Assembly: GCA_014905635.1 (NCBI GenBank)
Contig: JABVCE010000012.1
Span: forward strand, 310,001 to 374,000
DNA length: 64,000 bases
DNA from: Scenedesmus sp. PABB004
Lineage: Eukaryota
Direction: 5' to 3'
Position numbers and translations under genes: made by a program. The notes beneath the pieces are model-generated. The model did not search any database, was not told where the DNA came from, and saw only the letters and a program-made list of their open reading frames with translations. This document shows positions 232 through 64,000 of the stretch, in pieces; position 1 is the stretch's first letter; each line of letters starts with the position of its first letter.

Positions 232-2330
232 GGCGGCGCGGTGCAGGGCCCAGGGCGCAGGCGCCGCCCGGCCGGCTGCCCGCGCCGCCGCCGAGGAGGC
301 CCCCGCGCGCCGCCCCGCCACCCACAGCCGCCTCCCTCAGCGCCTCCCTGCCGCACACGCACACGCGCACGCGCCGGCCGCGCCCCTCACAGCGCCCGCA
401 CGCGCCGCGCCACTGTTCGAATCGCAGCCTGCCCCCACCCGCGCCGCGCCCCTGGCCAGGCGGGGCGAGGACCTGCGGGCGCCTGGTGACTAGGCCGTGC
501 CGCCCAGCGCAGCGCCAGGCGAGCCGCGCGCGCGGGCAGGCGGGGAGGGCAGCGGCGGGCGGGCGCGCCGCGCTGCGCGACGCTTGCTGCGGGCGGCGGG
601 GGCACCGGCACGGCGCGGCGGGCGGGCGTGTGGCGTGGGCCGCCGGGACTGCGCGCCTCGGGCGTCGCTGGCAGGCCCGCCGCCGCGCCGCCGCGCCGGG
701 GGCGGGGGGGGGGGGGGGCGGCGGGCGCCGCGCGCTGCTGCTGCTGCTGCTGCGCTCACGCCGCCCGCGCTCGCCCCCGCTGCTGCCGGTGCCCCGCCCG
801 CTGCTCCCTGGTCGACCGCAGGCTGTCAGGTGGCACCATGTCTGCTGCGCTGGCGGGCAAGCGGCACGCCAGGCCGACGACGAGCGTGCTGGCAGCGGCT
901 GCAGCTGCGGCGGGCGAGGCGCCTGGTGGCGCGGAGGCGGCGCCGAGGTGGGCGCGCTGCTGCTGCTGGTGCCCCCTGGCTGGTGCTGCCTGGAACGGCA
1001 CGCGCTGCCCTCCAGGCACCACCGCCCACAGCAGGCGCCGCCTGACGGCTTGCCGCCTGCCCCGCGCGCCCCGTCCTGCGCCGCCAGCAGCCCGTGAGCG
1101 GAGCTGTCCGACCCCCTCGTGCTCCACGTCCTGAGCTTCTGGTCGCTGGCCCTGCGGGCATGGACCGCCAGGCTGGTCTGCAAGGCGGCGCGCGAGCGCT
1201 TCCGCGGCGCCAGGCGCGTCTCGCTGCGCTGCCCGGAGCTGCCGCTGGCGGCGGTGCAGGAGGCGTGGCGGGTGGTGCCGGGTGACAAGGGGGGGAGAGG
1301 TGGCCAGCGCGCGCGCGGCGTGCGGCGACGTGGCGGGGCTGGCCTGGCTGTGCAGCGCCGGCTGCGACATGGATGACAGTGTGGGCTGGGCAGCAGCGGA
1401 GCACGGCCAGCTTGCCGTGCTGGAGTGGGCGCGCGGCGAGGGGCTGGACCCGGGGGGCGTGTGCAGCGGAGCAGCCGCGGGCGGGCAGTGGGCGGTGCTG
1501 CGCTGGGCGCGCGCGCAGACGCCGCCGGCGCCCTGGGGCAAGTACGTGTCCTCCTGGGCTGCGCTGCACGGCGACCTGGAGATGCTGCGCTGGGGTCGCG
1601 CCCAGGTGGAGCCCGCGCCGTGGGACGGCGAAGCGTGTAGGGTGGCGGCTCTGTCTGGGCAGCTTGAGGTGCTGCGCTGGCTGCGCGCCAACGGCTGCCC
1701 GTGGCAGCGCGCCGAGTGCGAGCGCTTGGCGGACCGGCGCCACGCGGCCGTGGTCGCGTGGATCCAGGCGCAGCCCGAGTGAGCTGTCGGGAGCAGCCTG
1801 CGTGAGCTCACTCGAGTGTGTCGGGAGGGCTGGCAAGCAGCGCGCGCCGGCCAGCTTGCCGTGCTGGAGCGGGCGCGCGGCGAGGGACGTTGACATGCGC
1901 GGCGTGTGTGCGTTCGGTGGGCAACTGTCGGCGCAGGCAGGCGCGAGTGGCGCACGGTCACGTGGTCAACGGCCGCCGATGAGTTTTTAGGAGGGGGGAC
2001 GCCGCTTGACTGCCGTTGTCTGCCGCGCCGGTGCGGCGCCCTGTTGCGCGCTGGTCGGGCTCGGCCGTGTGTTGCGCCGCCCCGTTGCAACCTCGACCGC
2101 GCAAGGACGGAGCCGCGCCTGGCCGGCAAGCGCGGCCAGGGTTTTGGGCTGCGGCGCAGGCTTGACGACCTGGCGGCCGCGGCAGCCGCAGCCGCTGTGC
2201 TGCACACCGCCGCTGTGCTGAGACACAGCCGGCACGCCGCCGCCCCATGCGCACCGCTGCATGCCCCGCCGCGCGCTGCCGCCGGCCGGAGCGCGCGCGC
2301 GCTGGCAACCGGCTGACCGCACGGAGCGCT
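232..2330 (+). repeat. F-box/ankyrin cassette copy U1 (leader + gene + 3' tail)
   Basis: Leader starts GGCGGCG(C)GGTGCAGGGCCCAGGGCGCAGGCGCCGCCCGG, as in the other copies. Tail 1783-~2290 is shared with U7 (36726-~37230). CTGGCAACCGG motif near 2303. Confidence 0.9.
838..1782 (+). pseudogene. F-box-like + ankyrin-like repeat gene, probably disrupted (U1)
   Basis: ATG 838; intron 948-1087 (AG|GTGGGC...CTGAC...CAG). In-frame TGA at 1095-1097 replaces the codon that is CTG in most copies. Frameshift near the G-run at ~1290. Repeats HGQLAVLEW...LRWLRANGCPW are otherwise intact. Confidence 0.75.
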
Positions 2331-2514
2331 CCCGGGCGGGCGGCCCGCCTCTCTCATTCACAACAGTCCCGGGCACCACTGCCGCCACCCGCGCCCGCCG
2401 CCGCGCGCCCCGTACAGCCCCTGGACAGCCTCTGCAGCTGGACAGGCGCGTCGGCACGCCATTCAACTCGACCTGCGTGCCCCAAGCTGCAGCCTCACCA
2501 CCCACCCCGCCTTC

Positions 2515-2575
2515 GCGCTGTGCGCTGTGCGCTGTGCGCTGTGCGCTGTGCGCTGTGCGCTGTGCGCTGTGCGCT
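2515..2575. repeat. (GCGCTGT)n heptamer tandem repeat, ~8 units, abutting the TLK stop codon
   Basis: Read directly from the sequence. Confidence 0.95.
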
Positions 2576-3666: not shown

Positions 3667-3708
<42 letters not shown>

Positions 3709-7163: not shown

Positions 7164-7489
7164 CCGCACTGCCGGCGCGCGTGGGAGGTCGGGGCTAGCC
7201 TCAGCGCATGAGGTTCGGGCGCGCGAGGCCCCAGGCGGCGCCAGGCGTGCAGGAGGAGCTTGGGTAATGGGTCGCGTTGGTCCAGCTGCCCGTAGAGCGC
7301 GCGCACGGTGCGATCGAGCCGTCTGGGGCGGTGGGAGCGCCGCGGGGGTGTGGCCAGGCCCCGGCCGGGCGGCGGCGAGGGCGCCGCCGGGAGTGACAAC
7401 TTTCGAAACGCCGCGTCGGCAGCGGCGGGCCGCCGGCGGGCTGGACGCTCACCGCCGCGGCGTGGGAGCTGGCCCGCCCAAGTGCAAAG

Positions 7490-9045
7490 CGTGCGCGGGT
7501 CGGCCGGTTGCCAGCACGCGGCACCGCCGCTCGCCCTTGGCCGCCGCCAACCCTCCTCGCGACGCGCGCACTCGACGAGCCTGCCCCCACCACCGCCACC
7601 GTGGCCGCGCTGCAGGCAGCACGACACGCTCCGCACACGCGCACTAGCCGCCAGCTGCGCCCGCACAGCCAGGCGCCAGCTGCGCGCGCGGCCGGCGCAG
7701 CTGGCTGCTCCCGACACCTCACGGTGCGGGCTCGGCCTGGGCGCGCGCCCAGCGCAGCATCTCCAGGTCGCCGCGCCGCGCAGCCCAGGAGCACACGTAC
7801 TTGCCCCAGGGCAGCGGCGGCGTTTGTGCACGCGCCCAGCGCAGCACACCCAGCTGCCCGCCCCTGGCTGCTTCGTCGCACACGTGACTCAGGTCGAGCC
7901 CCTGGTCGCGCGCCCACTCCAGCACGGCGACCTGGCCGGCGCGCACTGCTACCCAGCACACACTGTCAACCATGTCGCACCCGGCGCCGCGCAGCCAGGC
8001 CAGCACGGCCACGTCGCCACATCCCGCGCGTGCGCTGGCCAGCTGCCACTGGTCCAAACTCTGCACCGCCCGCCACGCCTCCTGCACCGCCGCCAGCGGC
8101 AGCTCGGGGCAGCGCAGCGAGACGAGCGTGGCATCGCGGAAGCGCTCGTGCGTCGCCGTGCAGATCAGCCTGGCAGTCCACGCCTGCAGGGCCGGCGGCA
8201 GGAAGCTCAGGACGTGGAGCACGAGGGGCATGGGCAGCTCCGGCAGCGGGCTGCTGGCGGCGCAGGCGGGCGCGCGGGTGCGGCGGTGAGGCAGCGCGCG
8301 GCGCCTGCTATCGTTGGCTGTGGCTCGCTGCTCAGCGCGCCACAGCACCAACAGCAGCGCGCCCACCTCGCCTCCACGTCCTCGCCGCTGGGCGCCTCGC
8401 CCACCGCCGCTGCCGTGGTCGGCCCGGCGCGCCGCGTGTCCGCCGGCGCAGCAGACATGGTGCCACCTGACAGCCTGCGGGCCAGCAGGGAGCAGCAGGC
8501 GGGGCACCGGCAGCAGCGGGCGCGTGCGCGGGCGGCGTGAGCGCAGCCGCAGCAGCGCGCGGCGCCCGCCCCCGCCCGGCGCGGCGGCGCGGCGGCGGGC
8601 CTGCCAGCGACGCCCAGGGCACGCAGGCCCGGCGGCCCACGCCACACGCCCGCCCGCCGCGCACCGCCGGTGCCCCCGCCGCCCGCAGCGGGCGCCGCGC
8701 AGCGCGGCCCGCCCGCTGCTGCCTGCTCCCCGCCTGCGCGCGCGCGCGGCTCGCCTGGCGCTGCGCTGGGCGGCACGGCCTAGTCACCAGGCGCCCGCAG
8801 GCCCGCGCCCCGCCTGGCCAGGGGCGCGCCGCGGGCAGGGGCGGGCGCTGCGCAGCGGCGGCGCGGCGCGTGCGGGAGCTGTGAGGGCCGCGGCCGGCGC
8901 TCGTGTGCGTGTGCGGCAGGGAGGCGCTGAGGGCGGCGGCTGTGGGCGGCGGGGCGGGTCGAGCGGGGGGCCTCCTCGGCGGCGGCGCGGGCAGCCGGCC
9001 AGGCGGCGCCTGCGCCCTGGGCCCTGCACCGCCGCCCGCGTGGCG
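7490..9045 (-). repeat. F-box/ankyrin cassette copy U2
   Basis: Leader ~9045-8459, gene, then CTGGCAACCGGCCGACC motif near 7500. Confidence 0.9.
7719..8458 (-). CDS. F-box-like + ankyrin-like protein, C-terminal repeat deleted (U2)
   Basis: ATG 8458, conserved intron, LPELPMPLVLHVLSFLPP...LICT. Ends AEPAP* joined directly to the TGAGGTGTCGGGAGCAGCC 3' flank also seen in U7. Confidence 0.75.
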
Positions 9046-9189
9046 CGGCTGCCGGGCGGGCGCGGCGTCGCGGCGCGGCTCGCGGCGCGGCGCGGTTACC
9101 GCCACCGCCGCGCGCGTCAACGGCAGCATGCGCGCGGCGCTCAACTCGCCCCCGCCGCACGCCTCCCCCCCCCCCGGCGTCGAGGGCGC

Positions 9190-11701: not shown

Positions 11702-12366
11702 CTCGACAGCCGAGCGGCTAGAGTGCGAGGCGTGGGCCACCGCACGGCTGGGCCAGGACCGGAGCCCGACACGCCAGCAGCAGCGGCGGTGCAGGGCGCA
11801 GCGAGCGCCGCCCGCCCGTCTGCCCGCGCCGTGCCGCCGAGGAGGCTCCCGCGCGCCGCCCACAGCCTCCGCCCTCAGCGCCCTGCCTCGCTCCTTGTCT
11901 CGCACCCACACAAGCGCCGGCCGCGGCCCTCTGTCTTGAAAGCCCGCCGCTGCCGTTCGAATCGCAGCCGCCCGCCCCCGCCCGCGGCGCGCCCCTGGCC
12001 AGGCGGGGCGCGGGCCTGCGGGCGCCTGACGGTCGGGCCGTGCCGCCCAGCGCAGCGCCAGGCGAGCCGCGCGCGCGTGCGGGCGGTGAGCAGGGCAGTG
12101 GCTGGCGGCGGGCAGTGCTGCTGCGCGGCGCCCGCTGCGGGCGGCGGGGGCTGCGGCGGTGCGCGGCGGGCGGGCGTGTGGCGTGGAACGCCGGGTCTGC
12201 GCGCCCCGGGTGCCGCTGGCAGGCCCGCCGCCGCGCCGCCGCGCCGGGGCGGCGGGGGCGGGCGCCGCGCGATGCTGCTGCTGCGCTCACGCCGCCCGCG
12301 CACTCGCGCCCGCTGCCGGTGCCCGCCTGCTGCTCCCTGCTGCCCCGCAGGGCCCCAGGCCGTGCC

Positions 12367-13305
12367 ATGTCTGCTGCGCTGTCAGGTGTCTCGCTCAGCG
12401 ACCTGGCGCTGGCGGTGGACGCGGCATCGAGGTGCGGGCGTGCTGCTGCCGCTGCCGCCCCGGGCCGGCACCCCTGGCCTTTCTATGCCTGGCGCGGCAC
12501 GCGCTGCCCACAAGCGACTGCTCCGGAAGCAGGCGGCGCCTCACCAGTCGCCCAACCGCCGCGCCCCACCCGCGCCGCCAGCAGCACCTGGCGGAACCTG
12601 CCGGAGCCGCTCGTGCTCCACGTCCTGAGCTTCCTCCCGCCGGCCCTGCAGCCGTGGGCCGCCAAGCTCGTCTGCAAGGCGGCGCGCGAGCGCTTCCGCG
12701 GCGCGACGGTCGTCGCGCTGCGCTGCCCCGAGCTGCCGCTGGCGGCAGTGCAGGAGGCGTGGCGGGATTTGCACGGTGGCTGGGTGCAGGAGAGCGTGCT
12801 GGCCGAGGCGCGCGCTGCGTGCGGCGACGTCGCGGGGCTGGCCTGGCTGCGCGTCGCCGGCTGCGACATGGATGACTCTGTGTTCAAAGCAGCAGCGGAG
12901 CACGGCCAGGTCGCCGTGCTGGAGTGGGCGCGCGGCAAGGGGCTGCGCATTCGGCGCTTGTGCGAGTTCGCAGCCGAGGGCGGGCAGCTTGCGGTGCTGC
13001 GCTGGGCGCGCGTGCAGACGCCACCGCTGCGCTGGGGCAACCATGTGTGCTCTGAAGCTGCGCTGCGCGGCGACCTGGAGATGCTGCGCTGGGCGCGCGC
13101 CCAGGCGAAGCCCGCGCCGTGGGACAAGGAGGTGTGCCGGATCACCGCTGTGCACGGGCACCTGGAGGCGCTGCGCTGGCTGCGCGCCAACGGCTGCCCG
13201 TGGCTGCGCGCCGAGTGCGAGAGCGACGCAGCGCGCGGCGGCCACGAAGCCGTGGTTGCGTGGATCCGGGCGCAGCCCGCGGCGGCGGACGATGGCTCTG
13301 ATTGA
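12367..13305 (+). CDS. F-box-like + ankyrin-like repeat protein (U3), apparently intact
   Basis: MSAALSGVSLSDLALAVDAA, intron (AG|GTGCGG), WRNLPEPLVLHVLSFLPP...LVCK, four core repeats, LRWLRANGCPW. Confidence 0.85.
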   Translation: MSAALSGVSLSDLALAVDAASRCGRAAAAAAPGRHPWPFYAWRGTRCPQATAPEAGGASPVAQPPRPTRAASSTWRNLPEPLVLHVLSFLPPALQPWAAKLVCKAARERFRGATVVALRCPELPLAAVQEAWRDLHGGWVQESVLAEARAACGDVAGLAWLRVAGCDMDDSVFKAAAEHGQVAVLEWARGKGLRIRRLCEFAAEGGQLAVLRWARVQTPPLRWGNHVCSEAALRGDLEMLRWARAQAKPAPWDKEVCRITAVHGHLEALRWLRANGCPWLRAECESDAARGGHEAVVAWIRAQPAAADDGSD

Positions 13306-14147
13306 CGTCGATCATCTACTTGGACGGGGACTAGGATTGGGGCGAGGCAGGCTCGAGGCTTGGTGCGTGCGCGGGGCGCTGCCTACAGCGTGTGGTGCGC
13401 GCGTGCGTGGCGAGGGAGAGGGAAAAGGGAAGCTGGCGGCGGCGAGGCGGCGCGTGCTGGCAACCGGCCGACCGCGCACGCAGCGCGCCTGGGCGGGTTG
13501 CCCTCTTGCGCGACCACCCGGCGCTGGCAGCGGTGGCACGTCGCCGCGCCGTGCCCCGCAGCGGCCGCACGCGGGCGGCGGTGCAGGCCCAGGGCGCAGG
13601 CGCCGCCCGGCCGGCTGCCCGCGCCGCCGCCGAGGAGGCCTCCCGCGCGCGCCGCCCCGCCGCCCACAGCCGCCGCCCTCTCAGCGCCCCTGCCGCACAC
13701 ACGCACACACGAGCGCCGGCCGCGGCCCTCACAGCTCCCGCACGCGCCGCGCCGCCGCTGCGCAGCGCCCGCCCCCGCCCGCGGCGCGCCCCTGGCCCGG
13801 CGGGGCGCGGCCGTGCGGGCGCCTGGTGACTGGATCGTGCCGCCCAGCGCAGCGCCAGGCGAGCCGGGCGCGCGGGCGGGGAGGGCGGCAGGCGGGCCGC
13901 GCTGCGCGGCGCCTGCTGCGGGCGGCGGGGGCACCGGCGGTGCGCGGCAGGCGGGCGTGTCGCGTGGACCGGCGGGTCTGCGCGCCTGGAGCGCCGCTTG
14001 CAGGCCTGCCGCCGCGCCGCCGCGCCGGGGCGGGGGCCGGGCGCCGCGCGCTGCTGCTGCTGCGCTCACGCCGCCCGCGCGCTCGCCCGCTGCTGCCGGT
14101 GCCCCGCCTGCTGCTCTCTGGTGACCCGCAGGCTGTCAGGTGGTACT

Positions 14148-15245
14148 ATGTCTGCTGCGCCGGCGGGCAAGCGGCACGCCGGGCCGACCACGCACGCGGG
14201 GGTGGGCGAGGCAGCGGCAGCAGGCGAGACACCGGCTGGGGCAGAGGCGGCGCCGTGGTGGGTCCGCTGGCTGCTGCTATTAGTGCACCCTGGCTGGTGC
14301 TGCCTGGCACGGCACGCGCTGCCCACAAGCCACCACCGCCGGCAGCGCGCGCCGCCTGACAGCTTGCCGCCTGCCCTGCGCGCCCCGCCCCGCGCCGCCA
14401 GCAGTCCGCTGCCAGAGCTGCCGCAGCCCCTCGTGCTCCACGTCCTGAGCCTCCGGCTGCCGGCCCTGCAGGCGTGGGCCGCCAGGCTGGTCTGCAAGGC
14501 GGCGCGCGAGCGCTTCCGCGGCGCCACGGACATCTCGGTGCGCTGCCCCGAGCTGCCGCTGGCGGCGGTGCGGGAGGCCTGGCGGGCGGCGCAGGGTGAA
14601 GGGTGGGAGCAGCAGCGGCGGCTGGCCAACGCGCGCGCGGCGAGCGGCGACGTGGCGGGGCTGGCCTGGCTACACAGCGCCGGCTGCGACATGGGCAGCG
14701 ATGTGGGTTACACAGCCGCATTACACGGCCAGCTCGCCGTGCTGAAGTGGGCGCGCGACGAGGAGCTCAACCTGCGGGGCGTGGGCCGGGCAGCGGCGGA
14801 GCACGGCCAGCTCGCTGTGCTGGAGTGGGCGCGCGGCGAGGGGCTGGACCTGGGGGGCGTGTGCCACGCAGCAGCCGCGAGCGGGCAGCTGGGCGTGCTG
14901 CGCTGGGCGCGCGCGCACACGCCGCCGCTGCCCTGGGGCGACCGGGTGTGCTTCTGCGCTGCGGCGCGCGGCGACCTGGAGGTGCTGCGCTGGGCGCGTG
15001 CCCAGGAGGAGCCCGCGCCGTGGGGCGAGCTCACGTGCGAGGCGGCGGCTCGCTCCGGGCAGCTGGAGGTGCTGCGCTGGCTGCGCGCCAACGGCTGCCC
15101 GTGGTGGCGCCGTGTGTGCGAGCGCGTGGCGGTATGCAATTGCCACGAGGCCGTGGTCGCGTGGATCCGGGCGCAGCCTGACTCGCCGGACGAGGGCGGC
15201 GGGGCGAATCGGCTGTGGTGGGTGGCGGCCTCTGTAGGCTGTTGA
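14148..15245 (+). CDS. F-box-like + ankyrin-like repeat protein (U4), five core repeats
   Basis: ATG 14148, conserved intron, LPELPQPLVLHVLS, extra HGQLAVL repeat. Confidence 0.85.
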   Translation: MSAAPAGKRHAGPTTHAGVGEAAAAGETPAGAEAAPWWVRWLLLLVHPGWCCLARHALPTSHHRRQRAPPDSLPPALRAPPRAASSPLPELPQPLVLHVLSLRLPALQAWAARLVCKAARERFRGATDISVRCPELPLAAVREAWRAAQGEGWEQQRRLANARAASGDVAGLAWLHSAGCDMGSDVGYTAALHGQLAVLKWARDEELNLRGVGRAAAEHGQLAVLEWARGEGLDLGGVCHAAAASGQLGVLRWARAHTPPLPWGDRVCFCAAARGDLEVLRWARAQEEPAPWGELTCEAAARSGQLEVLRWLRANGCPWWRRVCERVAVCNCHEAVVAWIRAQPDSPDEGGGANRLWWVAASVGC

Positions 15246-15559
15246 GTGCGCGCGGTGCGCGCAGAGTTGGCGGGGCGGGCGGCCAGGGAGCGCGCTGGCA
15301 ATCGGCTGACCGCGCGGGCCTCGAGGAGCTCCTCGCGGGGCACGGCCCTTACGCGGGGGGGGGGGGGGGGGCAGCGCAGCGCGCCTGGCAAGTTGCCGTC
15401 GCGCCACGCGCACGTGCCGCGGGCCGCCGCGCGCCGCGCGCCGCTAGCGCCCCACCGCGCCCGCCGCGCCCGCTGCGGCGCGCGCGGGCGCGCCGCCGCC
15501 GCGGCGCGGGCCCGCGCCGCCGGCGACCTGGCCCGGGCCCGGCCCGCGGCGCCGCCGCG

Positions 15560-29595: not shown

Positions 29596-30071
29596 AGTGG
29601 CTCGAGGCAGAGGGCTCAACAGGGCTCAACAACAGGGCTCAACAGGGTTCAAGGGTTCGAGGGCGCGCGCGCGGGGAGAAGGAAAGGTCCTGGGAGGGGG
29701 CGCTGGCAGCGGCGGCGGCGAGGGGCACTGGGCAGGGCGCTGCGGCGGCCAGCGGGGCAGGGGGGGGAGCAGCGGCCGGCCGGCGGGGCAGGGCCGCGAC
29801 GCGGCGCGGAGGGAGCGAGGGGCGGAGCGAGGGAGCTGGGGGCGCGCTGCGCGGCACGGGCGCCCGGCGCGGGCGCTGCTGGACTGAACCCCACACGGCG
29901 GCCGGGCGCAGGGGCGCGTCGCTTTTTCTGGCTCGGGAGCCTCCCGGCCGGCGCGCGCGCGGCGCGCGCTGAGTAAAAACGCTCGCGGAGGGTCCATGTC
30001 ATGGCGCCGTTGCTGGGTGCTGGCGGCGGCGGCACGTCGCCGCGCCGCGCCCACCCGGCAGCGGCGCCACG

Positions 30072-34917: not shown

Positions 34918-35009
34918 CGTGTCGTCCGGCCATGTGCGCCGGCGGTGCTGGGCGGTGCAACGTGCTGTCATCACAGCGAGAGCGCGACCACGCACCCGCC
35001 CGGCGGGCG

Positions 35010-37230
35010 GGGCGGCGGTGCAGGGCCCAGGGCCCAGGCGCCGCCCGGCCGGCTGCCCGCGCCGCCGCCGAGGAGGCCCCCGCGCGCACCGCCCCGCCGC
35101 CCACAGCCGCCGCCCTCTCAGCACCCCTGCCACACGCACACACACGCACGAGCGCCGGCCGCGGCCCTCGCAGTTCCCGCACGCACCGCGCCGCCGCCGC
35201 CCAGCACCCGCCCCCGCCCGCGGCGCGCCCCTGGCCAGGCGGGGCGCGGACCTGCGGGCACCTGGTGACTGGATCGTGCCGCCCAGCGCAGCGCCAGGCG
35301 AGCCGGGCGCGCGGGCGGGGAGGGCGGCGTGCGGGCGGGCGCGCTGCGCGGCGCCCGCTGCGGGCGGCGGGGGCACTGGCGGTGCGCGGTGGGCGGGCGT
35401 GTAGCGTGGATCGGCGGGTATGCGCGCCCCGGGCGCCGCTGGCAGGCCCGCCGCCGCGCCGGGGCGGGGGCGGGCGCGGCGCGCTGCTGCTGCCGCGCTC
35501 ACGCCGCCTGCGCGCTCGCCCGCTGCTGCCGCCGCTCCGCCTGCTGCCCCCTGGTGGTCCGCAGGCTGTGAGGTGGCACCATGGCGTCTGCGCCGGCGGG
35601 CAAGCGGCACGCCGGGCCGACCACGAGCGCGCACGCGGCCGCAGCGGCGGCAGGCGAGGCACTGGCGGGGGCCGAGGCGGCGCCGAGGTGGGCGCGCTGC
35701 TGCTGCTGCTGCTGCTGGTGCCCCCTGGCTGATGCTGCCTGGCGCGGCACGCGCTGCCCACGAGCCACCACCGCCGGCAGCAGGCGCCGCCTGACCGCCC
35801 GCCGCCCGCCCCGCTCGCCCTCGCTCCGCGCCGCCAGCAGCCTGTGGGCGGAGCTGCCTGAGCCCCTCGTGCTTCACGTCCTGAGCTTCCTGCCGCCGGC
35901 CCTGCAGGCGTGGGCAGCCAAGCTGGTCTGCAAGGTGGCGTGCGAGCGCTTCCGCGGCGCCACGGTCGTCTCCCTGCGCTGCCCCGGCCTGCCGCTGGCG
36001 GCGGTGCAGGAGGCCTGGCGGGCGGTGCTTGCTGCCAAGCAGGGTGACAAGTGGCTGAAGCGGCAGCGGGTGACCAAGCGGCAGGAGCAGTGGCAGCGGC
36101 GGGCGGTGAAGCATCACAAGCGGCAGCAGTGGCGGCTGGCCAACGCGCGCGCGGTGTGCGGCGACGTGGCGGGGCTGGTCTGGCTGCGCGGCGCCGGCTG
36201 CGACATGGATGACATGTCTTTGAACGACGGCGTGCGCTACACAGCAGCGCGCGCCGGCCAGATCGCCGTGCTGGAGTGGGCGCGCGGCGAGGGGCTGGAC
36301 CTGCGGTATGTGTGCTACGAAGCAGCGCGCGCCGGCCAGGTCGCCGTGCTGGAGTGGGCGCGCCGCAAGGGGCTGTACCTGGGGCACGTGTGCTGCCATG
36401 GAGCAGCCTCTGGCGGGCAGCTGCATGTGCTGCGCTGGGCGCGCGCGCAGACTCCGCCGGCGCCCTGGGGCGATCGGGTGTGCTCCTGCGCTGCGCAGCG
36501 CGGCGACCTGGAGATGCTGCGCTGGGCGCGCGCGCCCAGGCTGAGCCCGCGCCGTGGGACGAGGAGGCGTGCGAGGCGGCGGCCGGAAACGGGCAGCTGG
36601 AGGCGCTGCGCTGGCTGCGCGCCAACGACTGCCCGTGGGACCGCGCCGCGTGCGAGCGCACGGCGGCCAGGCCGTGGCGTCGCGACGAGGCCATGCTCGC
36701 GTGGATCCAGGCGCAGCCCGAGTGAGGTGTCGGGAGCAGCCTGCGTAAGCTCACTCGAGTGTGTCGGGAGGGCTGGCAAGGAAGCAGGAAGCATCGCGCA
36801 CCGGCCAGCTTGCCGTGCTGGAGCGGGCGCGCGGCAAGGGACGTTGACGTGCGCGGCGTGTGTGCGTTCGGTGGGCAGCTGTCGGCGCAGGCAGGCGCGA
36901 GTGGCGCACGGTCGCGTGGGTCCATGGCCGCCGATGAGTTTTAGGAGGGGGGACGCCGCTTGACTGCCGCTGTCTGCCGCGCCGGTGCGGCGCCCTGTTG
37001 CGCGCTGGTCGGGCTCGGCCGCGTTGGGCCGCCCCGTTGCAACCTCGACCGCGCAAGGACAGAGCCGCGCCCGGCGGCCGTCGAGGCTAGTGTTTTGTCG
37101 CTGCGGCGGAGGCTTGAACGACCTGGCCGCCGCCGCCGCTGTGCTGCACACCGCTGCTCTGCTGCAGACACAGCCGGCTCGCCGCCGCCCCACGCGCACC
37201 GCTGCATGCCCCGCCGCGCGCTGCCGCCGA
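35010..37230 (+). repeat. F-box/ankyrin cassette copy U7 with 3' tail shared with U1
   Basis: Leader starts ~95 bp after the QTRT2 stop. Tail 36726-~37230 matches 1783-~2290. Confidence 0.9.
35581..36725 (+). pseudogene. F-box-like + ankyrin-like gene (U7) with +2 frameshift near 36530
   Basis: Extra CG in a GCGCGC run shifts the last repeat into another frame (real mutation or assembly error). Expanded basic linker KQGDKWLKRQRVTKRQEQW... Confidence 0.7.
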
Positions 37231-37260
37231 CCGCCCGCCGCTCCTTCATGGCCGGCGACC

Positions 37261-44311: not shown

Positions 44312-45201
44312 GCTCCCCGCCGGCGCCTGGGCCCGCGCCGTGGCGACGGCCCACCCTGTAGGCGCTCACCAGCAGCGCTCGTCGCAGACAGGCTGACGGC
44401 GGGGGCAGTCGCGGGCGGGCGGCGTGAGCGCAGCAGCAGCAGCAGCGGCGCGCCGCGCCCGCCCCCGCCCCGGCGCGGCGGCGCGGCGGCAGGCCTGCCA
44501 GCGGCGCCCGGGGCGCGCAAGCCCAGCATTCCACGCCACACGCCCACCCGCCGCGCACCGCCGGTGCCCCCGCCGCCCGCAGCGGGCGCCGAGCAGCGGC
44601 GCGGCCCGCCCGCCGCCGCTGCCTGCTCACCGCCTGCCCGCGCGCCCGGCTCGCCTGGCGCTGCGCTGGGCGGCACGTGCTAGTCACCAGGCGCCCGCAG
44701 GCCCGCGTCCCGCCTGGCCAGGGGCGCGCCACGGGCGGGGGGCGGGCGCTGGGTGCGGCGCGGTGCGTGCGGGCGCTGTGTGGGCCGCGGCCGGCGCTCG
44801 TGTGTGCGCGTGGCAGGGGGGGGGGGGGGGGGGCTGAGAGCGGCGGCTGTGGGCGGCGGGGCGGCGCGCGCGGGGGCCGTCCTCTGCGGCGGCGAGGGCA
44901 GCCGGCCGGGCGGCGCCTGCGCCCTGGGCCCTGCACCGCCGCCCGCGTGCCGCCGCTGCCGGGCGGGCGCGACGTGCTGCCGTCAGCACAGTGACGGCGC
45001 GGGAGTGCGACCCGCCCAGGTGCACTGCGTGCGCGGTCGGCCGGTTGCCAGCACGCACCGCCTCGCCGCTGCCAGCTTCCCTCTCCCTCTCCCTCGCCAC
45101 GCACGCGCACCATGCCGCAAGCAGCGCCCGCACGCACGCGCGCCCAGCCACGGGCCTGCCTCACCTCGCCCTGATCGTAGTCCGCGTCCGAGCTGTGAAG
45201 G

Positions 45202-46132
45202 TCAGAAATCGCGAGAGTCGTCGTCCAGCGACGCGGGCTGCGCCCGGATCCACGCGACCACGGCCTCGTGGCCACGCATGGCCGCCCAGTTCTCGCACTC
45301 GCGACGCCACCACGGGCAGCCGTTGGCGCGCAGCCAGCGCAGCACCTCCAGGTGCCCGTTCGCGGCCGCCATGCAGCACGCCCTGCAGTCCCACGGCGCG
45401 GGCTCGGCCTGGGCGCGCAGCCAGCGCAGCAGCTCCAGGCCGGGGCAGTGCGCAGCGAAAACACACTCCAGGCCGCCCCAGGGCAGCGGCGGCGTCTGCG
45501 CGCGCGCCCAGCGCAGCACACCCAGCTGCCCGCCCGTGACTGCGTTGGTGCACGCGTCCCACAGGTCCAGCCCGTTGTCGCGCGCCCACTCCAGCACGGC
45601 GACCTGGCCGAGCGCCGCTGCTGCTTCGCACACAGAGTCATCCATGTCGCAGCCGGTGCCGCGCAGCCAGGCCAGCCCCGCCACGTCGCCGCACGCCGCG
45701 CGCGCCTCTGTCAGCCGCCTCTGCTGCTCCCACCCTTCACCCTGCAACGCCCGCCAGGCCTCCTGCACCGCCGCCAGCGGCAGCTCGGGGCAGCGCAGCG
45801 AGACGTCCGTGGCGCCGCGGAAGCGCTCGTACGCTGCCTTGCAGACCAGCTTGGCGGCCCACGCCTGCAGGGCCGGCGGCAGGAAGCTCAGGACGTGGAG
45901 CACGAGCGGCTCGGGCAGCTCTGGCAGCGGGCTGCTGGCAGCGCGGGCGGTGAGCGGCCGGGCGGCATGGGTGGCGTGGCGGGCCGAGGTGCGCGCAGCA
46001 GCCGCTGGTTCATTCGCAGCGCCCCCTGGCCAGGCAGCACCGGCCATGAGACGCCTCGCCACACGCGCACCTCGCCTCTGCGACCTCCGCCAGCATCAGA
46101 CCGCTGAGCGAATGCTCTACCAGCGAGGCCAT
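45202..46132 (-). CDS. F-box-like + ankyrin-like repeat protein (U10), apparently intact
   Basis: MASLVEHSLSGLMLAEVAEA, phase-2 intron (AG|GTGCGC), LPELPEPLVLHVLSFLPP, four core repeats. Confidence 0.85.
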
Positions 46133-46764
46133 GGCGCCACCTGGGGGCCATGCAGGCCACCAGGGAGCAGCAGGCGGGGCGCCGGCCACAGCGGGGCGAG
46201 CGCGCGGGCGGCGTGAGCGCGGCAGCCGCAGCAGCGCGCGGCGCCCGCCCCGGCGCGGCGGCGCGGCAGCGGGCCTGCCAGCGGCGCCAGGGGCGCGCAG
46301 GCCCGGCGTTACACGCGACATGCCCGCCCGCCGCGCACCGCCGGTGCCCCCGCCGCCGCCAGCGGGCGCCGCGCAGTGCTGACCGGCCTCCGCTGCCCTC
46401 CCCGCCTGCCCGCGCGCCCGGCTCGCCTGGCGCTGTGCTGGGCAGCACGACCTAGTCACCAGGCGCCCGCAGGACCGCACTCCGCCTGGCCAGGGGCGCG
46501 CCGCGGGCGGGGGCGGGCGCGGGGCGGCGGCGGTGTGTGCGGGCGGGCGCTGTGAGGGCCGCGGCCGGCGCTTGTGCGTGTGCGTGTGTGTGGCAGGGGC
46601 GATGAGGGCAGCGGCTGTGGGCGGCGGGGCGGCGCGCGCGGGAGGCCTCCTCGGCGGCGGCGCGGGCAGCCGGGCGGCGCCTGCGCCCTGGGCCCTGCAC
46701 CGCCGCTCACCCACCGAGGTCGCTGCAAGCGCCGGCAACGATAGGAGGTTCAACCCCTCCCAGC

Positions 46765-48053
46765 TCACTCGGGCTGATCCCAAATCCACAAAAACACGGC
46801 CCCGTGGCGACCTGCCGATGCTTCCATCATGCAGTCGCCGCGCCGCCAGGGGCAGCCGTTGGCACGCGCCCAGCGCAGCACGTCCAGGTGCCCGAAGCGA
46901 GCCGCGCGCCAGCACACCCACTTGTCCCACGGCGCGGGATCGGCCTGGGCGCGCGCCCAGCGCAGCATCTCCACGTCGCCGCGCGCCGCAGCCTCCCAGC
47001 ACATGCCGCCCCAGGGCAGCGGCGGCGTCTGCGCGCGCGCCCAGCGCAGCACATCCCAGTGCCCACCGTAGGCTGCTCCGCTGCACACGTGCTCCAGGTC
47101 CAGCCCCTGATCTCGCGCCCACTCCAGCACGGCGAGGTGGCCGCGCCGCGCTGCTGCGGAGCCCACACCGCCCATCCAACAGCCGGTGCCGTGCAGCCAG
47201 GCCAGCCCCGCCACGTCGCCGGCCGCCGCGCGCGCCCCCGGCAGCTGCAGCTGCCACCATGCTGGCCAGAACTGTGCCGCCAGCCGCGCCTCCAGGACCG
47301 CCGCCAGCGGCAGCTCGGGGCACCACAGCATGTCATATGACATGGCGCCGCGGAAGCGCTCGCGCGCCGCCTTGCAGACCAGCTTGGCAGTCCACGCCTG
47401 CAGGGACGACGGCAGGAAGCTCAGGACGTGGAGCACGAGCGGCTGTGGCAGCTCTGGCAGCAGGGTGCTGGCGGCACGGGCGGGGCGCGGGCAAGCGGGC
47501 GGGCGGCGGGCGGTCAGGCGGCGCCTGCTGCCGGCGGTGGCGGCTCGTGGGCAGCGCGTGCCGCGCCAGGCAGCACCAGCCAGGGGGCTCCAGCAGCAGC
47601 AGCTGCCCCACGGCAGCACCAGCCAGGGGGCTCCAGCAGCAGCAGCTGCCCCACCTCGGCGCCGCCTCTGCCCCCGCCGGTGCCTCGCCTGCTGCCGCTG
47701 CGGCCGCCGCCCGCGCGCTCGTGGTCGGCCCGGCGTGCCGCTTGCCCCCCGGCGCAGCAGACAAGGCACGGCCTGGGCGCCTGCGGGGCAGCAGGGAGCA
47801 GCGGGCGGGGCATCGGCAGCAGCGGGCGTGAGCGCGCGGGCGGCGTGAGCGCAGCAGCAGCGGTGGCGCCCATCCGACAGCGCGTGCCGCGCCAGGCAGC
47901 ACCGGCCAGGGGTCACCAGCGGCAGCAGCAGCGGACCCACCTCGACGCCGCCTCTGCCCCAGCCGGTGCCTTGTCCGCCGCCACCGCTGCGGCAGCCGCC
48001 CGCGCGCGCGTGGTCGGCCCGGCGTGCCGCTTGACCGCCGGCGCAGCAGACAT
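46765..48053 (-). CDS. F-box-like + ankyrin-like repeat protein (U11), with duplicated exon-1 region
   Basis: ATG 48053. A second exon-1-like segment (ATG changed to TTG) lies at ~47860-47650. Acceptor near 47466; ends WIWDQPE*. Confidence 0.75.
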
Positions 48054-48740
48054 GGCGCCACCTGACAGCCTGCAGGCCACCAGGGAGCAGCAGGCGGGGC
48101 GCCGGCAGCAGCGTGCGAGCGCGCGGGCGGCGTGAGCGCAGCAGCAGCAGCGCGCGGCGCCCGCCCCCGCCCCGGCGCGGCGGCGCGGCGGCGGGCCTGC
48201 CAGCGGGGCCCGAGGCGCGCAGACCCGGCGGCCCACGCCACACGCCCGCCCGCCGCGCATCGCCGCAGCCCCCGCCGCCCCGCAGCGGGCGCCGCGCAGC
48301 GCGGCCCGCCCGCCGTCGCTGCCCTCCCCGCCCGCCCGCGCGCCCGGCTCGCCTGGCGCCGCGCTGGGCGACACGATTTAGACACCAGGCGCCCGCAGGC
48401 CCGCGCCCCGCCTGGCCAGGGGCGCGCCGCAGGCGGGGGCGGGCGCTGGGCGGCGGCGCGGCGCGTGCGGGCGCTGTGAGGGCCGCGGCCGGCGCTCGTG
48501 TGTGTGCGTGTGTGGCAGGGGTGCTGACGGCGGCGGCTGTGGGCGGCGGGGCGGCGCGCGCACAGGGGGCCTCCTCGGCGGCGGCGGGGGCAGCCGGCTG
48601 GGCGGCGCCTGCGCCCTGGGCCTGCACCGCCGCCTGGTGCGGCCGCTGCCGGGCGGGCGCGGCGCCTGGGCCTGGCGGCAGCACGGATGCGTGTGCGCGC
48701 GCACGGCCCACCAAGGCGCTTGCTCGCGGCATGCGCGTCC

Positions 48741-56817: not shown

Positions 56818-56857
<40 letters not shown>

Positions 56858-60328: not shown

Positions 60329-61272
60329 TCACTCGGGCTGCGCCCGGATCCACGCGGCCACGGCCTCGTGGCCACGGCCCGCCGCAGACTCGCACCAGTC
60401 GCGCCGCCAGGGGCAGCCGTTGGCGCGCAGCCAGCGCAGCGCCTCCAGGTGCCCGCGGTCAGCCGCCGCCCAGCACACCCACTCGTCCCACAGAAAGCCG
60501 TTGGCGCGCAGCCAGCGCAGCATCTCCAGGTCGCCAAGCCGCGCAGCGTCGTAGCACACGTGCGTGCCCCACGGCAGCGGCGGCGTCTGCGCGCGCGCCC
60601 AGCGCAGCACCGCCAGCTGCCCGCCCTCGGCTGCTGCGTTGCACACGCCCCCCAGGGCCAGCCCCTCGCCGCGCGCCCACTCCAGCACGGCGAGCTGGCC
60701 GTGCTCCGCTGCTGCCCAGCACACGCTGTCCATGTCGCAGCCGGCGCCGCGCAGCCAGGCCAGCCCCGCCACGTCGCCGCACGCCGCGCGCGCCCCTGCC
60801 AGCTCCCTCTGCTTCTCGTCACCCTGCACCGCCCGCCAGGCCTCCCGCATCGCCGCCAGCGGCAGCTCGGGGCAGCGCAGCGCGACGACCGTCGCGCCGC
60901 GGAAGCGCTCGCGCGACGCCTTGCAGACCAGCTTGGCGGCCCACGCCTGCAGGGCCAGCGGCAGGAAGCTCAGGACGTGGAGCACGAGCGGCTCGGGCAG
61001 CTCCGGCAGCGGGCTGCTGGCGGCGCGGCGCGGTGCGGTGGGGCGGGCGGGCGGGCGGCGGGCGGTCAGGCGGCGCCTGCTGCCGGCGCCAGGCAGCACT
61101 AGCCGGGGGTGCCGCGCCGGGCAGCACTAGCCGGGGGTTGCCAGCAGCAGCAGCAGACCCACCTCTGCGCCGCCTCCGCCCCAGCCGGCGCCTCGCCCGC
61201 CACCGCTGCGGCCGCCCCGCGTGCGCTCGTGGTCGGCCCGGCGCGCCGCTTGACCGCCGGCGCAGCAGACAT
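60329..61272 (-). CDS. F-box-like + ankyrin-like repeat protein (U12), apparently intact
   Basis: ATG 61272, intron AG|GTGGGT. Two terminal-type modules: LRWLRANGFLW and LRWLRANGCPW. Confidence 0.85.
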
Positions 61273-62102
61273 GGTGCCGCCTGACAGTCTGCGGGCCACC
61301 AGGGAGCAGCAGGCAGAGAGCCGCCAGCAGTGGGCGAGCGCGTGGGCAGCGTGAGCGGCAGCAGCAGCGCGCGGCGCCGCGCCCGCCCCGGCGCGGTGGC
61401 GCGGCGGCGGGCCTGCCAGCGACGCCCGGGGCGCGCAGGCCCGGTGGACCACGCGACATGACCGCCCGCCACGCACCGCCGGTGCCCCCGCCGCCCGCGG
61501 TGGGCGCCGCGCAGCGCGGCGCGCTGCTGCTGCCCTCCCCCGCGCGCGCGGCTCGCCTGGCGCTGCGCTGGGCGGCACGGCCTAGTCACCAAGAGCCCGC
61601 AGCGCGTCGCCCCGCCTGGCCAGGGGCGCGCCACGGGCGGGGCCGGGCGCGGGGCGGCGCGGCGCGTGCGTGCGGCGATGTGCGGGCCGCGGCCGGCGCT
61701 CGAGTGTGTGTGCGTGTGGCAGAGGCGCTGAGGGCGGCGGCAGTGTGGGGCGGCGGGGCGGCGCGCATAGGGGGCCTCCTCGGCGGCGGCGCGGGCAGCC
61801 GGCCAGGCGGCGCTCGCTGCGCCCTGGGCCCTGCACCGCCGCCCCCGCGCCGCCGCTGCCGGGACGGCGCGGCGCGTCGACGTGCTGCCGCCGCCAGCGC
61901 CCAGCGACGGCGCGGGAGTGCGACCCGCCCAGGTGCACTGCGCGCGCGGTCGGCCGGTTGCCAGCGCTTGCCGCCCTCGCCGTCGCCAACTTCCCTCCCC
62001 TCTCCCTCGCCACGCACGCGCGCACCACCACGACGCTGGCAGCGCCCCCCGCACACGCACGCGCGCCCAGCCACGGGCCTGCCTCGCCTCGCCCTGGCCG
62101 CG

Positions 62103-63325
62103 CTAGGCGGCGCGCTGCGCGTCGCCCTCGAGGGCGACGTCCGAGTCCCCCTCCCCCACCCCGTCCTCGTCCTCCTCCCAATCGTCCGAGTCCTCCCCCA
62201 CCCCGTCCTCGTCCGCCTCCCCATCGCCCGAGCCCCCCTCCCCCTCCCCTCCTCCCCCTCCCCCTCCCCCTCCCCCTCGTCCTCGTCCTCCCCCTCGTCC
62301 TCGTCCTCATCATCCGCGAACAAGCTGAGGAAGGCAAGGAAACGGGCAATCTCAGGGTGGTCGTCCGCCGACACGGGCTGCGCTCGGATCCACGCGACCA
62401 CGGCCTCGTGGCCAAGGACAAACGCCCCGTCCTCGCACTGCATGCGCTGCCACGGGCAGCCGTTGGCACGCAGCCAGCGCAGCGCCTCCAGGTGCCCGTG
62501 CGCAGCCGCCAGCCTGCACACCTCCTTGTTCCACGGCGCGGGCTCGTCCTGGGCGCGCACCCAGCGCAGCATCTCCAGGTCGCCGCGCTCCGCAGCGAAC
62601 CTGCACACCCAGTCCCCGTCCCACGGCACCGGCGGCATCTGCGCGCGCGCCCAGCGCAGCACATCCAGCTGCCCGCCCGCGGCAGCTCCGCAACAAGCGT
62701 TCCACAGGTCCAGCCCCTCGCCGCGCGCCCACTCCAGCACGGCGAGCTGGCCGGCGCGTGCTGCCTTGTGGACCCCGCCGTGCACGTTGCAGCCGGCGCC
62801 GCGCAGCCAGGCCAGCCCCGCCACGTCCCCGCACGCAGCGCGCGCCCCGGCCAGCCGCGACTGCTGCCGCCCATCACCCTGCAACGCCCGCCACGCCTCC
62901 TGCACCGCCGCCAGCGGCAGCTCGGGGCAGCGCAGCGAGACGACCGTGGCGCCACGGAAGCGCTCGTGCGCCGCCTTGCAGACCAGCTTGGGGCACCACG
63001 CCTGCAGGGCCAGCGGCAGGAGGTCCAGGACATGGAGCACGAGCGGCTCGGGCAGCTCCGGCAGCGGGCTGCTGGCGGCGCGGCGGGGCGAGGGCGAGCG
63101 GGGCGGGCGGAGGGCGGTCAGGCGCGCCTGCTGCCGGCGGTGGTGGTTCGTGGGCAGCGCGTGCCGCTCCAGGCAGCATCAGCCAGGGGGGCCCCAGCAG
63201 CAGCAGCAGCGGCCCCAACTCGGCGCCGCCTCGGCCCCCGCCGGTGCCTCGCCTGCTGCCGCTGCGGCCGCGCATGCGCTCGTGGTCGGCGCGGCGTGCC
63301 GCTTGCCCGCTGGCGCAGCAGACAT
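62103..63325 (-). pseudogene. F-box-like + ankyrin-like gene (U13) with mutated splice donor and acidic tail
   Basis: Donor is AG|TT at 63218 instead of AG|GT, and the unspliced frame stops within the intron. Long D/E/G tail with frameshifts in G-runs. Confidence 0.6.
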
Positions 63326-64000
63326 GGTTCCACCTGACAGCCTGCGGGCCACCAGGGAGCAGCAGGCGGGGCGCCGGCAGCAGCGTGCGAGCGCGCGGGC
63401 GGCGTGAGCGCGGCAACAGCAGCGCGCGGCGCCCGCCCCCGCCGCCCCGGCGCGGCGGCGCGACGGCGGGCCTACCAGCGGCGCCCGGAGCGCGCAGAAC
63501 TAGCGGCGCACGCCACACGCCCGCCCGCCGCGCACCGCCGGTGCCCCCGCCGCCCGCAGCGGGCGCCGCGCAGCGCGCCCCGCCCGCCCGCCGCTGCCCT
63601 CCCCGCCTGCCCGCGCGCGCGGCTCGCCTGGCGCTGCGCTGGGCGGCACGGCCTAGTCACCACGCGCCCGCGGGTCCGCGCGCCCCGCCTGGCCAGGGGC
63701 GCGCCGCGGCGGCAGCGGGCGCTGCGATTCGAACGGCAGCGCGCGTGCGAGCGGGAGCTGCGAGGGCACTTCCACCGCTGTGTGCGTTTGCGTGTGGCAT
63801 GGGGCTGTGGGCGGCGGCTGTGGGCGGCGCGCGCGGGGGGGCTCCTCGATGGCGGCGCGGGCAGACAGCCGGGCGGCGCCGCCGCCCTGCGCCGCCGCCC
63901 TGCGAGCGCCGCGTGGTGTTTCAAGCGGCGGCGCCGCAGCAACGCCGCGCCTCCAATGCGCGCACACCAGACACACGCCAGCCAGCCAGCCAAGCGCGCC

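Follow-up and report, generated by a model that had tools for sequence, protein, structure and literature searches.

A linked family of F-box-like/ankyrin-repeat genes dispersed between the housekeeping genes of the green alga Scenedesmus sp. PABB004

Introduction

How does a gene, together with its upstream non-coding region, come to lie in one intergenic gap after another of a compact algal genome, and what might the resulting proteins do? This question is raised by a 64,000-bp stretch of the genome of the unicellular green alga Scenedesmus sp. PABB004 (GenBank assembly GCA_014905635.1, contig JABVCE010000012.1, positions 310,001–374,000 of the forward strand; hereinafter the window, from whose first letter all positions below are counted), in which a first-pass annotation, made from the letters alone, had noticed a recurring unit with F-box-like and ankyrin-like segments. 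The genome is described as comprising 39.8 Mb in 77 contigs, with 7,092 genes, 78.5% G+C and 1.31% repeats (PMC12571836), yet the family considered here takes up 31.6% of the window and occupies nearly every gap between housekeeping genes over ~85 gene models. The words "ankyrin" and "F-box" are absent from that paper, a full-text search found no paper joining F-box, ankyrin and Scenedesmus within the library that it covered, and none of the papers naming the strain concerns this family, as judged by their titles and abstracts. Here, we describe the anatomy, predicted fold, variation and setting of these copies, and present a case, which we hold with fair confidence, for a lineage-specific cluster of receptor genes spread by segmental copying of DNA.

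Results

Thirteen copies of one gene-sized unit between unrelated genes

Using positions 232–1800 as the query in a BLASTN search of the window, supplemented by two extended copies, we recovered the unit at 13 places, which we named c1 to c13 (Table 1). Long matches between copies are 74–87% identical, and each of the 13 places listed by the first-pass annotation was found again. The copies group into eight blocks totaling 20,256 of the 64,000 bp, lie in two orientations (chiefly + left of the midpoint of the window and − right of it), and are separated by genes unrelated to the family, among which Pfam searches recognized a protein kinase, a diphthamide synthesis protein, the carbamoyl-phosphate synthase (CPS) large chain, a queuine tRNA-ribosyltransferase (TGT), a TauE-type exporter, a peptidase S10 (serine carboxypeptidase) and a short-chain dehydrogenase (SDR). 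The flanks of the copies align with a mean pairwise identity of 0.53 upstream and 0.43 downstream, as against 0.74–0.875 within the unit. The arrangement is thus not a simple tandem array, though five head-to-tail junctions occur (c3>c4, c5>c6, c11>c10, c10>c9 and c13>c12); on this point, as on the placement of copies in both orientations between unrelated genes, the annotation was right. We could rule out an assembly artefact, as the copies are 13–26% divergent and differ in coding state.

The architecture of the unit, read from a MAFFT alignment of the ten long copies, bears out the succession of leader, exon 1, intron, F-box-like segment and GCPW-type repeats proposed earlier. The unit opens with a leader of ~640 bp that starts with GCGGTGCAGGG, and the start codon stands in the context GGTGGCACCATG. 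Exon 1 begins with this ATG and measures 62–113 nt; it is followed by a GT..AG intron of 113–156 nt (typically ~140 bp, with 473 nt in c11), which is kept in all ten coding copies. Exon 2 opens with ...LPELPEPLVLHVLSFLP..LVCKAA.. (LPELPxPLVLHVLSFLP...LVCK), continues with short repeats of the form ..VCxxAAxxGxLxVLxWAR.. and closes with ..NGCPW....WIRAQP. Beyond this, similarity ends a few bases from the stop codon in some copies and continues further in others. The encoded protein of about 260–320 aa accordingly combines an F-box-like N-terminus, a conserved helical linker and four to six ankyrin repeats of 26–30 aa. By coding state, the 13 copies comprise seven open reading frames (ORFs), one truncated copy, two pseudogenes and three fragments (c6, c8 and c9); the notion of a 13-fold gene-carrying cassette therefore holds for the ten copies with coding sequence and fails for the three fragments. 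Open ORFs of 262–319 aa are found in c3, c4, c5, c10 and c12. Repeat number differs between copies because of internal duplications of 78 or 90 nt: recent in-frame duplications of a single repeat are seen in c4 (14724–14913, 78 nt), c7 (36231–36394, 78 nt) and c13 (62469–62686, 90 nt), and c4, c5 and c7 have one additional ankyrin repeat. The G+C content of the copies (78–82%) falls within that of the window (74–85% throughout).

An ankyrin stack behind an F-box-like N-terminus

The ankyrin fold of the C-terminal region is solidly established. The Pfam profile Ank_4 scores 24.1–38 bits in eight of the ten matching copy ORFs, above its cut-off of 22.7 (e.g., 28.5 for P0001, which is most of exon 2 of c5), with the remaining two just below it (20.1 and 21.3). 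An AlphaFold2 model of the c3 protein (P0003) has a predicted local distance difference test (pLDDT) score of 88, rising to >94 over residues 90–250, and displays paired helices in each repeat. All seven PDB matches that Foldseek returned for this model at E≤1e-3 are ankyrin-repeat proteins, including DARPins, Espin, AnkB and an E3 ligase (6xkc). The repeats of the family are shorter than the canonical version (26–30 versus 33 aa).

The assignment of the N-terminus to the F-box is supported by sequence profiles at the level of the family and is weaker than that of the ankyrin repeats. Positions 1–30 of the Pfam F-box-like profile align to LPEPLVLHVLSFLP in nine of 13 relatives and copies (15.5–20.2 bits), and among 32 members of the N-terminal family at E≤0.01 this profile matches 16 (best 2.3e-5) and PF00646 matches nine. 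A relative from Acanthamoeba (P0007) exceeds the PF00646 cut-off (21.5 versus 20.5). When a profile of the N-terminus was run against the PDB, 15 sequences were recovered at E≤10; F-box proteins make up 11 of them and take the first nine ranks, with each match falling within the F-box: FBXO2 (E 0.019), then FBXL2, FBH1, MAX2/D3, FBXW7 and FBXO42. The same database searched with the single sequence P0001 gave nothing meaningful. A model of the isolated 62-aa N-terminus (pLDDT 78) has helices at residues 8–15, 20–37 and 53–61; it found no Foldseek match at E≤1e-3, D3/MAX2 (5hyw_C) appearing only at E 9.7, and a wide VIA structure search with it reached a best Z of 3.9 and listed no F-box protein. 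In P0003, the F-box-like motif (residues ~27–60) and the ankyrin stack (~88–250) are separate. The N-terminal module is rare, being found in 49 representative clusters at E≤1e-3 in a library of 1.84 billion proteins.

The protein is most likely a substrate-receptor subunit of an SCF (Skp1-Cullin-F-box) ubiquitin ligase, in which the F-box would bind SKP1 while the target would be selected by the concave side of the stacked ankyrin repeats. The earlier suggestion of an SCF substrate-receptor repertoire agrees with the predicted combination of an F-box-like N-terminus with ankyrin repeats of variable surface; the use in defence that it held possible is conjectural.

Variation concentrates on one face of the ankyrin repeats

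Averaged over the 45 pairs of long copies, identity is highest in the leader (0.875) and the F-box part (0.875), and lower in the ankyrin part (0.777), the intron (0.754) and exon 1 (0.737). At the protein level, 23 columns show at least five residue types among eight copies, and 22 of these hypervariable columns fall in the ankyrin region. Their period is that of the repeats, with positions two residues ahead of the (V/L)C in the loop, two past the C in helix A, and one or two past the AA at the end of helix A; helix B is almost invariant among copies. The loop/helix-A face is the target-binding face of ankyrin repeats.

We compared the proportions of nonsynonymous (pN) and synonymous (pS) differences by the Nei-Gojobori method. 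The ankyrin region as a whole has a pN/pS of 1.11 (pN 0.212, pS 0.190; codon bootstrap 0.91–1.41; >1 in 19 of 28 pairs) and the F-box part one of 0.77 (pN 0.109, pS 0.142; 0.48–1.21). Under a partition picked after seeing the data, pN/pS is ~1.8 in the hypervariable columns (pN 0.65, pS 0.36) and ~0.4 in the framework columns (pN 0.053, pS 0.141).

A conserved non-coding leader, twice left bare before a housekeeping gene

The leader is about as conserved as the synonymous sites of the F-box part. A coding leader was rejected on three grounds: its variation lacks 3-base periodicity, every frame is stopped in some copy, and no segment with coding-like G+C at third codon positions (GC3) overlaps any leader. 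As RNAalifold likewise gave no support for a conserved RNA structure (covariation term +7.28, with compensatory change in only 7 of 165 pairs) and Rfam at gathering thresholds returned no match, we consider the leader non-coding. ARAGORN found no tRNA gene.

The conserved motif CCCGCAG/G, ~16–18 nt before the family ATG, resembles a splice acceptor, with a CTCAC ~60 nt further upstream. Since the annotated fusion models P0002 and P0011 read ...PGGAMS across the CCCGCAG/G site, we infer an intron in the 5′ untranslated region (5′UTR), with its donor predicted near CCTG/GTGACT; the leader would probably comprise a promoter and a 5′UTR containing this intron. Two leaders also stand without a gene of their own family. 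The ATG of the TGT gene (32490; MFKVTAQDG...) follows the end of c6 after 54 bp, and that of the SDR gene (44311; MSPPVVLVTGAS...) follows the end of c9 after 88 bp. Each leader has the orientation of the gene that it precedes, and both occupy the promoter/5′UTR position of an unrelated gene. Either the deletion of an F-box coding sequence joined the leader to the gene behind it, or these copies were truncated when made, and the two leaders may act as promoters of TGT and SDR, respectively. As a naturally occurring pair, they lend themselves to testing whether a duplicated gene can donate its promoter.

Between c4 and c5, which are 16.5 kb apart with two genes in between, the leaders (13578–14147 and 30078–30649) are 97.7% identical, with 277 identical bases in a run, next to exons 1 that are 77% identical. 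This is a clear conversion or recombination tract. It is the only clear one: conversion among the copies at large, as an explanation for the conserved leader, is unsupported by a pairwise homoplasy index (PHI)-like test, the figures of which are given below.

Two leaders contain long homopolymers, namely ~19 G in c1 (697–715) and a C run in c9 (about 44790–44810), where the other copies have 4–5 bases; these could be slippage-prone or assembly-sensitive spots.

Unit edges vary around a recurrent breakpoint

Four junctions (c3>c4, c5>c6, c10>c9 and c13>c12) have in common a spacer upstream of the leader, in which two segments of different sequence, M and E, precede it in the order M-E-leader. 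M starts with GCTGGCAACCGGCYGACC, which has eight sites in the window versus 0.06 expected, always in the orientation of the adjacent copy; E, of about 70–80 bp, contains GCGCCGTCGCTGGGCGCTGG and runs into the leader. Outside these junctions, c1 and c2 have E at the start and M at the end, c5 has E at the start and c4 a degenerate M at the end. The extension on the 5′ side of the leader varies: it is nil in c3 and c10, ~12 bp in c13, ~25 bp in c7, ~35 bp in c11 and c8, and ~70–80 or 180–260 bp elsewhere. On the 3′ side, units terminate at the stop codon (c11, c12), just before M (c7) or after M.

Longer stretches were also copied. c1 and c7 have a private 3′ flank of ~520 bp in which 461 of 497 aligned bases (92.8%) are identical, their cores being 81–89% identical by region. 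In the two-unit blocks c3-c4 and c10-c9, the spacer is 76.7% identical over 322 aligned columns; as c3 and c10 have in common a distinct, short exon 1, an acidic tail and the next spacer, the two-unit block was apparently copied whole.

No hallmark of a known mobile-element class is present. We picked 111 ORFs of the window by GC3 periodicity and scanned them against Pfam, finding no transposase, reverse transcriptase or integrase domain among them. Terminal inverted repeats (TIRs) around c5-c6 were limited to GC-rich matches of 70–89% away from the ends, none above GC-rich noise. None of the eight blocks has a target-site duplication (TSD) beyond chance, the best direct repeats at block edges being of 4–8 nt and equalled by random pairs in 9–95% of trials. 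No run of A or T in the window exceeds 8, a length reached within the CPS gene. Long terminal direct repeats (LTRs) are missing too, and with introns retained and neither poly(A) nor LTRs present the copies do not look like retrocopies, LINE- or SINE-mediated copies or LTR elements. The 5′ edge, at GCGGTGCAGGG or in E, and the differing 3′ edges lack the 5′-TC and 3′-CTRR of Helitrons, and no terminal hairpin was noted, though no dedicated hairpin scan of the 3′ ends was made. The annotation's statement that transposase, reverse transcriptase, TIR, TSD and poly(A) are lacking is hence sustained.

The family is concentrated on one contig

The top database matches of P0001 are hypothetical proteins of Scenedesmus sp. 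PABB004 itself. From annotated proteins (in a near and a longer length class), to which any count outside the window is confined, we obtained 27 family-containing models in this strain, of which 23 lie on one contig of 1,235,393 bp, with locus tags, where given, running from HT031_003954 to HT031_004038; the local character proposed for the family is thereby supported. Sixteen long models on this contig hold 25 F-box cores, as counted with a regular expression derived from the window copies, fused to unrelated genes (HDAC-like amidohydrolase, aspartyl aminopeptidase, beta-glucosidase, fbiC, chorismate mutase, FZR2, WD40 protein, lipase and others). With a best identity of ≤80%, these 16 are not encoded in the window, and together with P0002, P0006 and P0011 they bring the family to at least 29 copies on the same contig outside it. 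Among the ten coding window copies, only c3 is a separate annotated protein in the two length classes searched (HT031_004001, P0003; tblastn 12367–13302; a match by eye save one splice-site residue). Because the public annotation fuses family copies to unrelated neighbors in at least 16 models, gene counts and names in this region are unreliable. Such fusions are seen among P0024–P0030, P0068–P0077 and P0080; a single model of 1,966 aa, named histone deacetylase-like amidohydrolase, holds four F-box cores.

In a quick tree built from 38 PABB004 segments plus five library sequences provisionally taken to be from other algae, with models lacking the regular-expression core and segments <120 aa omitted, these five sequences and P0005 fell in one clade (support 97). 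For the other 37 PABB004 copies, the tree is a poorly resolved star (median end branch 0.41; 22 of 40 inner branches open), with window copies intermixed with outside copies, and P0004, which is on another contig, grouping with c10. The leader tree is also star-like (six of nine inner branches open). P0009 matched 22 metagenome loci, which are short and mostly cover the ankyrin part only; a metagenome search with alignment A4 retrieved no loci.

Probable segmental copying and its alternatives

We favor, with fair confidence, a lineage-specific linked cluster of F-box/ankyrin receptor genes spread by DNA-level segmental copying and birth and death. Gene-sized segments of 1.6–3.6 kb would have been copied repeatedly at the DNA level, each with its own ~640-bp leader, and would have landed in nearby intergenic spacers in either orientation. 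The copies would then have evolved by birth and death, the loop and helix-A residues diversifying and the framework being conserved; ankyrin repeat units would have been duplicated within genes, and occasional conversion would have acted between copies, as in the c4-c5 leader. c1 and c7 would have decayed, c2 been truncated, and c6, c8 and c9 undergone large deletion, two deletions or truncated insertions leaving a bare leader directly before two housekeeping start codons. Segmental duplication fits better than transposition because the ends vary and because two-unit blocks and a private 3′ flank were copied too; for the same reasons, the earlier description of the unit as a non-autonomous element, with the defined ends that this implies, found no support. 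Several observations weigh against our preferred account. The starts of c1, c2 and c5 and the ends of c1, c2 and c4 fall within ~10 nt of one M/E point, and recurrence of this kind resembles a defined unit more closely than segmental breakpoints falling at random; a transposition burst, too, would yield a star-like tree. With respect to the receptor function, the window copies score 15.5–19.2 bits on the F-box-like profile, all below its gathering score of 24.3; the profile check which the annotation had called for was clear for the ankyrin repeats and gave, for the F-box, matches at the level of the family. The F-box matches in the PDB are each marginal (E 0.019–2.1). As for diversification, the region-wide pN/pS interval of the ankyrin part includes 1, synonymous sites in a genome of ~80% G+C are themselves constrained, and the hypervariable column set was chosen post hoc. 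Finally, the PHI-like test gave no significant signal for the leader by itself (as low a value in 50 of 500 permutations) or for exon 2 (104 of 500), and its result for the whole unit (0 of 500) is confounded by differences between regions.

The recurrent M/E breakpoints, the star-like trees and the placement of one copy per gap lend some weight to a true non-autonomous mobile cassette. It would reach from E (GCGCCGTCGCTGGGCGCTGG) to M (GCTGGCAACCGGCYGACC…CTCCC) and be copied to linked intergenic sites by a recombinase or by replicative means, with the enzyme genes lying elsewhere; the intermediate might be circular or tandem, with an M/E junction, and copies with other ends would be truncated or later eroded. 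The oriented M sites in their large excess over expectation, the M-E-leader order at four head-to-tail junctions, the agreement of breakpoints among c1, c2, c4 and c5, the dense and local occurrence of copies in both orientations within tens of bases of neighboring genes, and the presence of relatives on another contig (P0004) all speak for it. We nevertheless think it unlikely: 5′ ends at 0, ~12, ~25 and ~35 bp and 3′ ends at the stop codon or just before M are at odds with fixed termini, TIRs and TSDs are lacking, none of the 111 ORFs encodes a protein of such an element, the common E…M ends could be inherited from one duplicated progenitor, and the 13–25% divergence of the copies leaves recent movement unsupported. 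An old static family, i.e., a former tandem array split by inversions, translocations and gene arrivals, its leader and F-box kept alike by gene conversion, would account for the five surviving head-to-tail junctions, for the c4-c5 conversion tract, for the + left half and − right half expected from a large inversion, and for the age of the N-terminal module suggested by its 49 representative clusters. To scatter eight blocks over 64 kb, with ~85 interleaved gene models, it would need very many rearrangements that spared compact housekeeping genes; moreover, all PABB004 copies except P0005 fall on one side of the provisionally algal sequences and the within-region recombination tests are not significant, and we accordingly regard it as quite improbable. 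Lastly, giant viruses carry large F-box and ankyrin families, with tandem duplications of ankyrin, MORN and F-box proteins described for pandoraviruses (PMC5995976), and P0007-like F-box/ankyrin genes occur on viral contigs of 745 kb (L023) and 2.47 Mb (L024) whose proteins are 38–44% identical to the window copies in the ankyrin region. That the copies are remnants of an integrated virus is nonetheless very improbable indeed, given the spliceosomal GT..AG intron in every coding copy, a host-like G+C of 78–82% compared to 58% in the viral loci, the alternation of copies with intron-bearing host housekeeping genes, and the lack of any viral hallmark domain among the 111 ORFs. The closer relatives with the same N-terminal module are database and metagenome proteins that are provisionally algal, and a search of viral contigs with this module yielded no confirmed relative.

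Positions of the copies and other features of the window

The extent and landmarks of each copy are listed in Table 1.

Table 1. Family copies and associated segments in the window, with start codons, exon 2 limits and condition; for the − strand, paired positions may be given in reading direction.
Feature	Block	Positions	Strand	Landmarks	Condition and remarks
c1	B1 (171–2346)	unit 171–1788	+	leader 238–837; ATG 838; exon 2 from ~1088; stop 1780–1782	pseudogene: in-frame stop after splice acceptor, and frameshift
c1 3′ flank	B1	to ~2290	+		common only to c7
M of c1	B1	2301–2346	+		
c2	B2 (7450–9110)	9110–7720	−	ATG 8458; exon 2 in frame 8252–7722	cut off after third-from-last repeat; 208 aa; M fragment 7535–7450
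c3		11770–13305	+	ATG 12367; exon 2 12583–13302	intact 262-aa ORF; short type-2 exon 1; acidic C-terminal tail
c4		region 13319–15340; unit 13578–15245	+	M/E spacer ahead 13319–13577; ATG 14148; exon 2 14403–15242	317-aa ORF
Degenerate M at c4 3′ side		15294–15340	+		
c5		30004–31765	+	ATG 30650; exon 2 30917–31762	intact ORF; P0001 is most of exon 2
c6		31775–32436	+	M/E spacer and first ~480 bp of leader	fragment; no coding sequence
c7	B5 (34974–37233)	unit 34974–36743	+	ATG 35581; stop ~36741	single frameshift (2-nt insertion) in last quarter; pseudogene, barring sequencing error
c8		39754–39476	−	M, first ~35 nt of leader, last ~150 nt of coding sequence with stop codon	internally deleted scrap between 3′ ends of TauE and peptidase S10 genes
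c9		45118–44399	−	M/E spacer and ~540 bp of leader	fragment; no coding sequence
c10		45202–46706	−	ATG 46132; exon 2 45933–45205	intact 264-aa ORF; type-2 exon 1; acidic tail
c11		46765–48665	−	ATG 48053; exon 2 47466–46768	289-bp internal duplication (leader end and exon 1) at 47612–48148; 271-aa ORF open only with 473-nt intron; many odd substitutions
c12		60329–62096	−	M/E spacer 62096–61840; ATG 61272; exon 2 61015–60332	intact 265-aa ORF; homology stops at stop codon
c13		63916–~62330	−	ATG 63325; exon 2 from 63070	frame open past acidic tail to 61589, without stop for 494 codons; true 3′ end uncertain

Two features of the window lie outside the family. The segment 48700–60300 (~11.6 kb) has 83–85% G+C, long open frames on both strands and coding-like GC3 periodicity; it is rich in GC-rich short tandem repeats, and no Pfam match was obtained among the ORFs scanned there. 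A perfect microsatellite of 8.7 (GCGCTGT) units (2515–2575) adjoins the stop codon of the protein kinase gene, downstream of it, on the minus strand.

Discussion

Fast-evolving F-box receptor families are thought to form innate recognition repertoires in plants and nematodes, and the algal case, if true, would extend this idea to microalgae and their viruses or parasites. A bolder reading goes further: a locally amplifying cassette (E-leader-gene-3′UTR-M), free of TIRs and TSDs and copied into linked intergenic spacers by recombination or replication, would bring along its own promoter, able to drive neighboring housekeeping genes, and would build a repertoire of hypervariable SCF receptors, perhaps aimed at giant viruses with F-box/ankyrin proteins of the same class. 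We judge this unlikely; were it borne out, such a cassette would be of a kind not described before.

Among mobile elements, Pack-MULEs and Helitron captures also multiply and scatter a segment of a host gene with no enzyme within the copy. The algal unit differs from them in having no TIRs, TSDs or 5′-TC/3′-CTRR ends (with the proviso on 3′-end hairpins given above), in its variable ends and in its cargo, which is a whole gene with an intron and a putative promoter region rather than a fragment.

Poxviral ANK/F-box (PRANC) proteins and chlorovirus ankyrin proteins are described as binding Skp1 and serving as SCF substrate adapters (PMC9414399, PMC7019647). Like them, the algal proteins combine ankyrin repeats with an F-box-type motif; unlike the algal version, theirs is a C-terminal F-box-like motif in viral proteins that hijack host ligases, and they do not constitute a host repertoire. 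Closer in layout are the Acanthamoeba castellanii protein ACA1_351310 (P0007) and its counterparts on the giant-virus contigs L023 and L024, in which the F-box likewise comes first and is followed by short ankyrin repeats closing with NGCPW, with 38–44% identity over the repeats; the occurrence of this class in giant viruses, which the first-pass annotation had stated, is thereby supported. The algal genes are set apart from these by their introns, host G+C and a specific N-terminal module of ~100 aa (LPEPLVLHVLSFLP..LVCKAA..LPLAA..ARAACGD). The proteins of the two viral contigs are themselves ~40% identical to P0007, the L023 match being near full length and including the N-terminal F-box.

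Expanded, fast-evolving F-box families were reportedly the subject of a 2006 study by Thomas in Genome Research. In accounts of land plants and Caenorhabditis, such families have many members, are lineage-specific and form clusters; their evolution proceeds by birth and death, with positive selection in the target-binding part, and they have been proposed to serve in immunity (PMC8120010, PMC8665587, PMC3030570). Unlike in those families, the binding domain of the algal proteins is built of short ankyrin repeats, the host is a unicellular green alga, and the copies are interleaved almost singly with housekeeping genes, each with its conserved non-coding leader of ~640 bp. What the algal proteins have in common with their plant and Caenorhabditis counterparts is the basic plan, in which an F-box or F-box-like N-terminus precedes a variable protein-binding region at the C-terminus.

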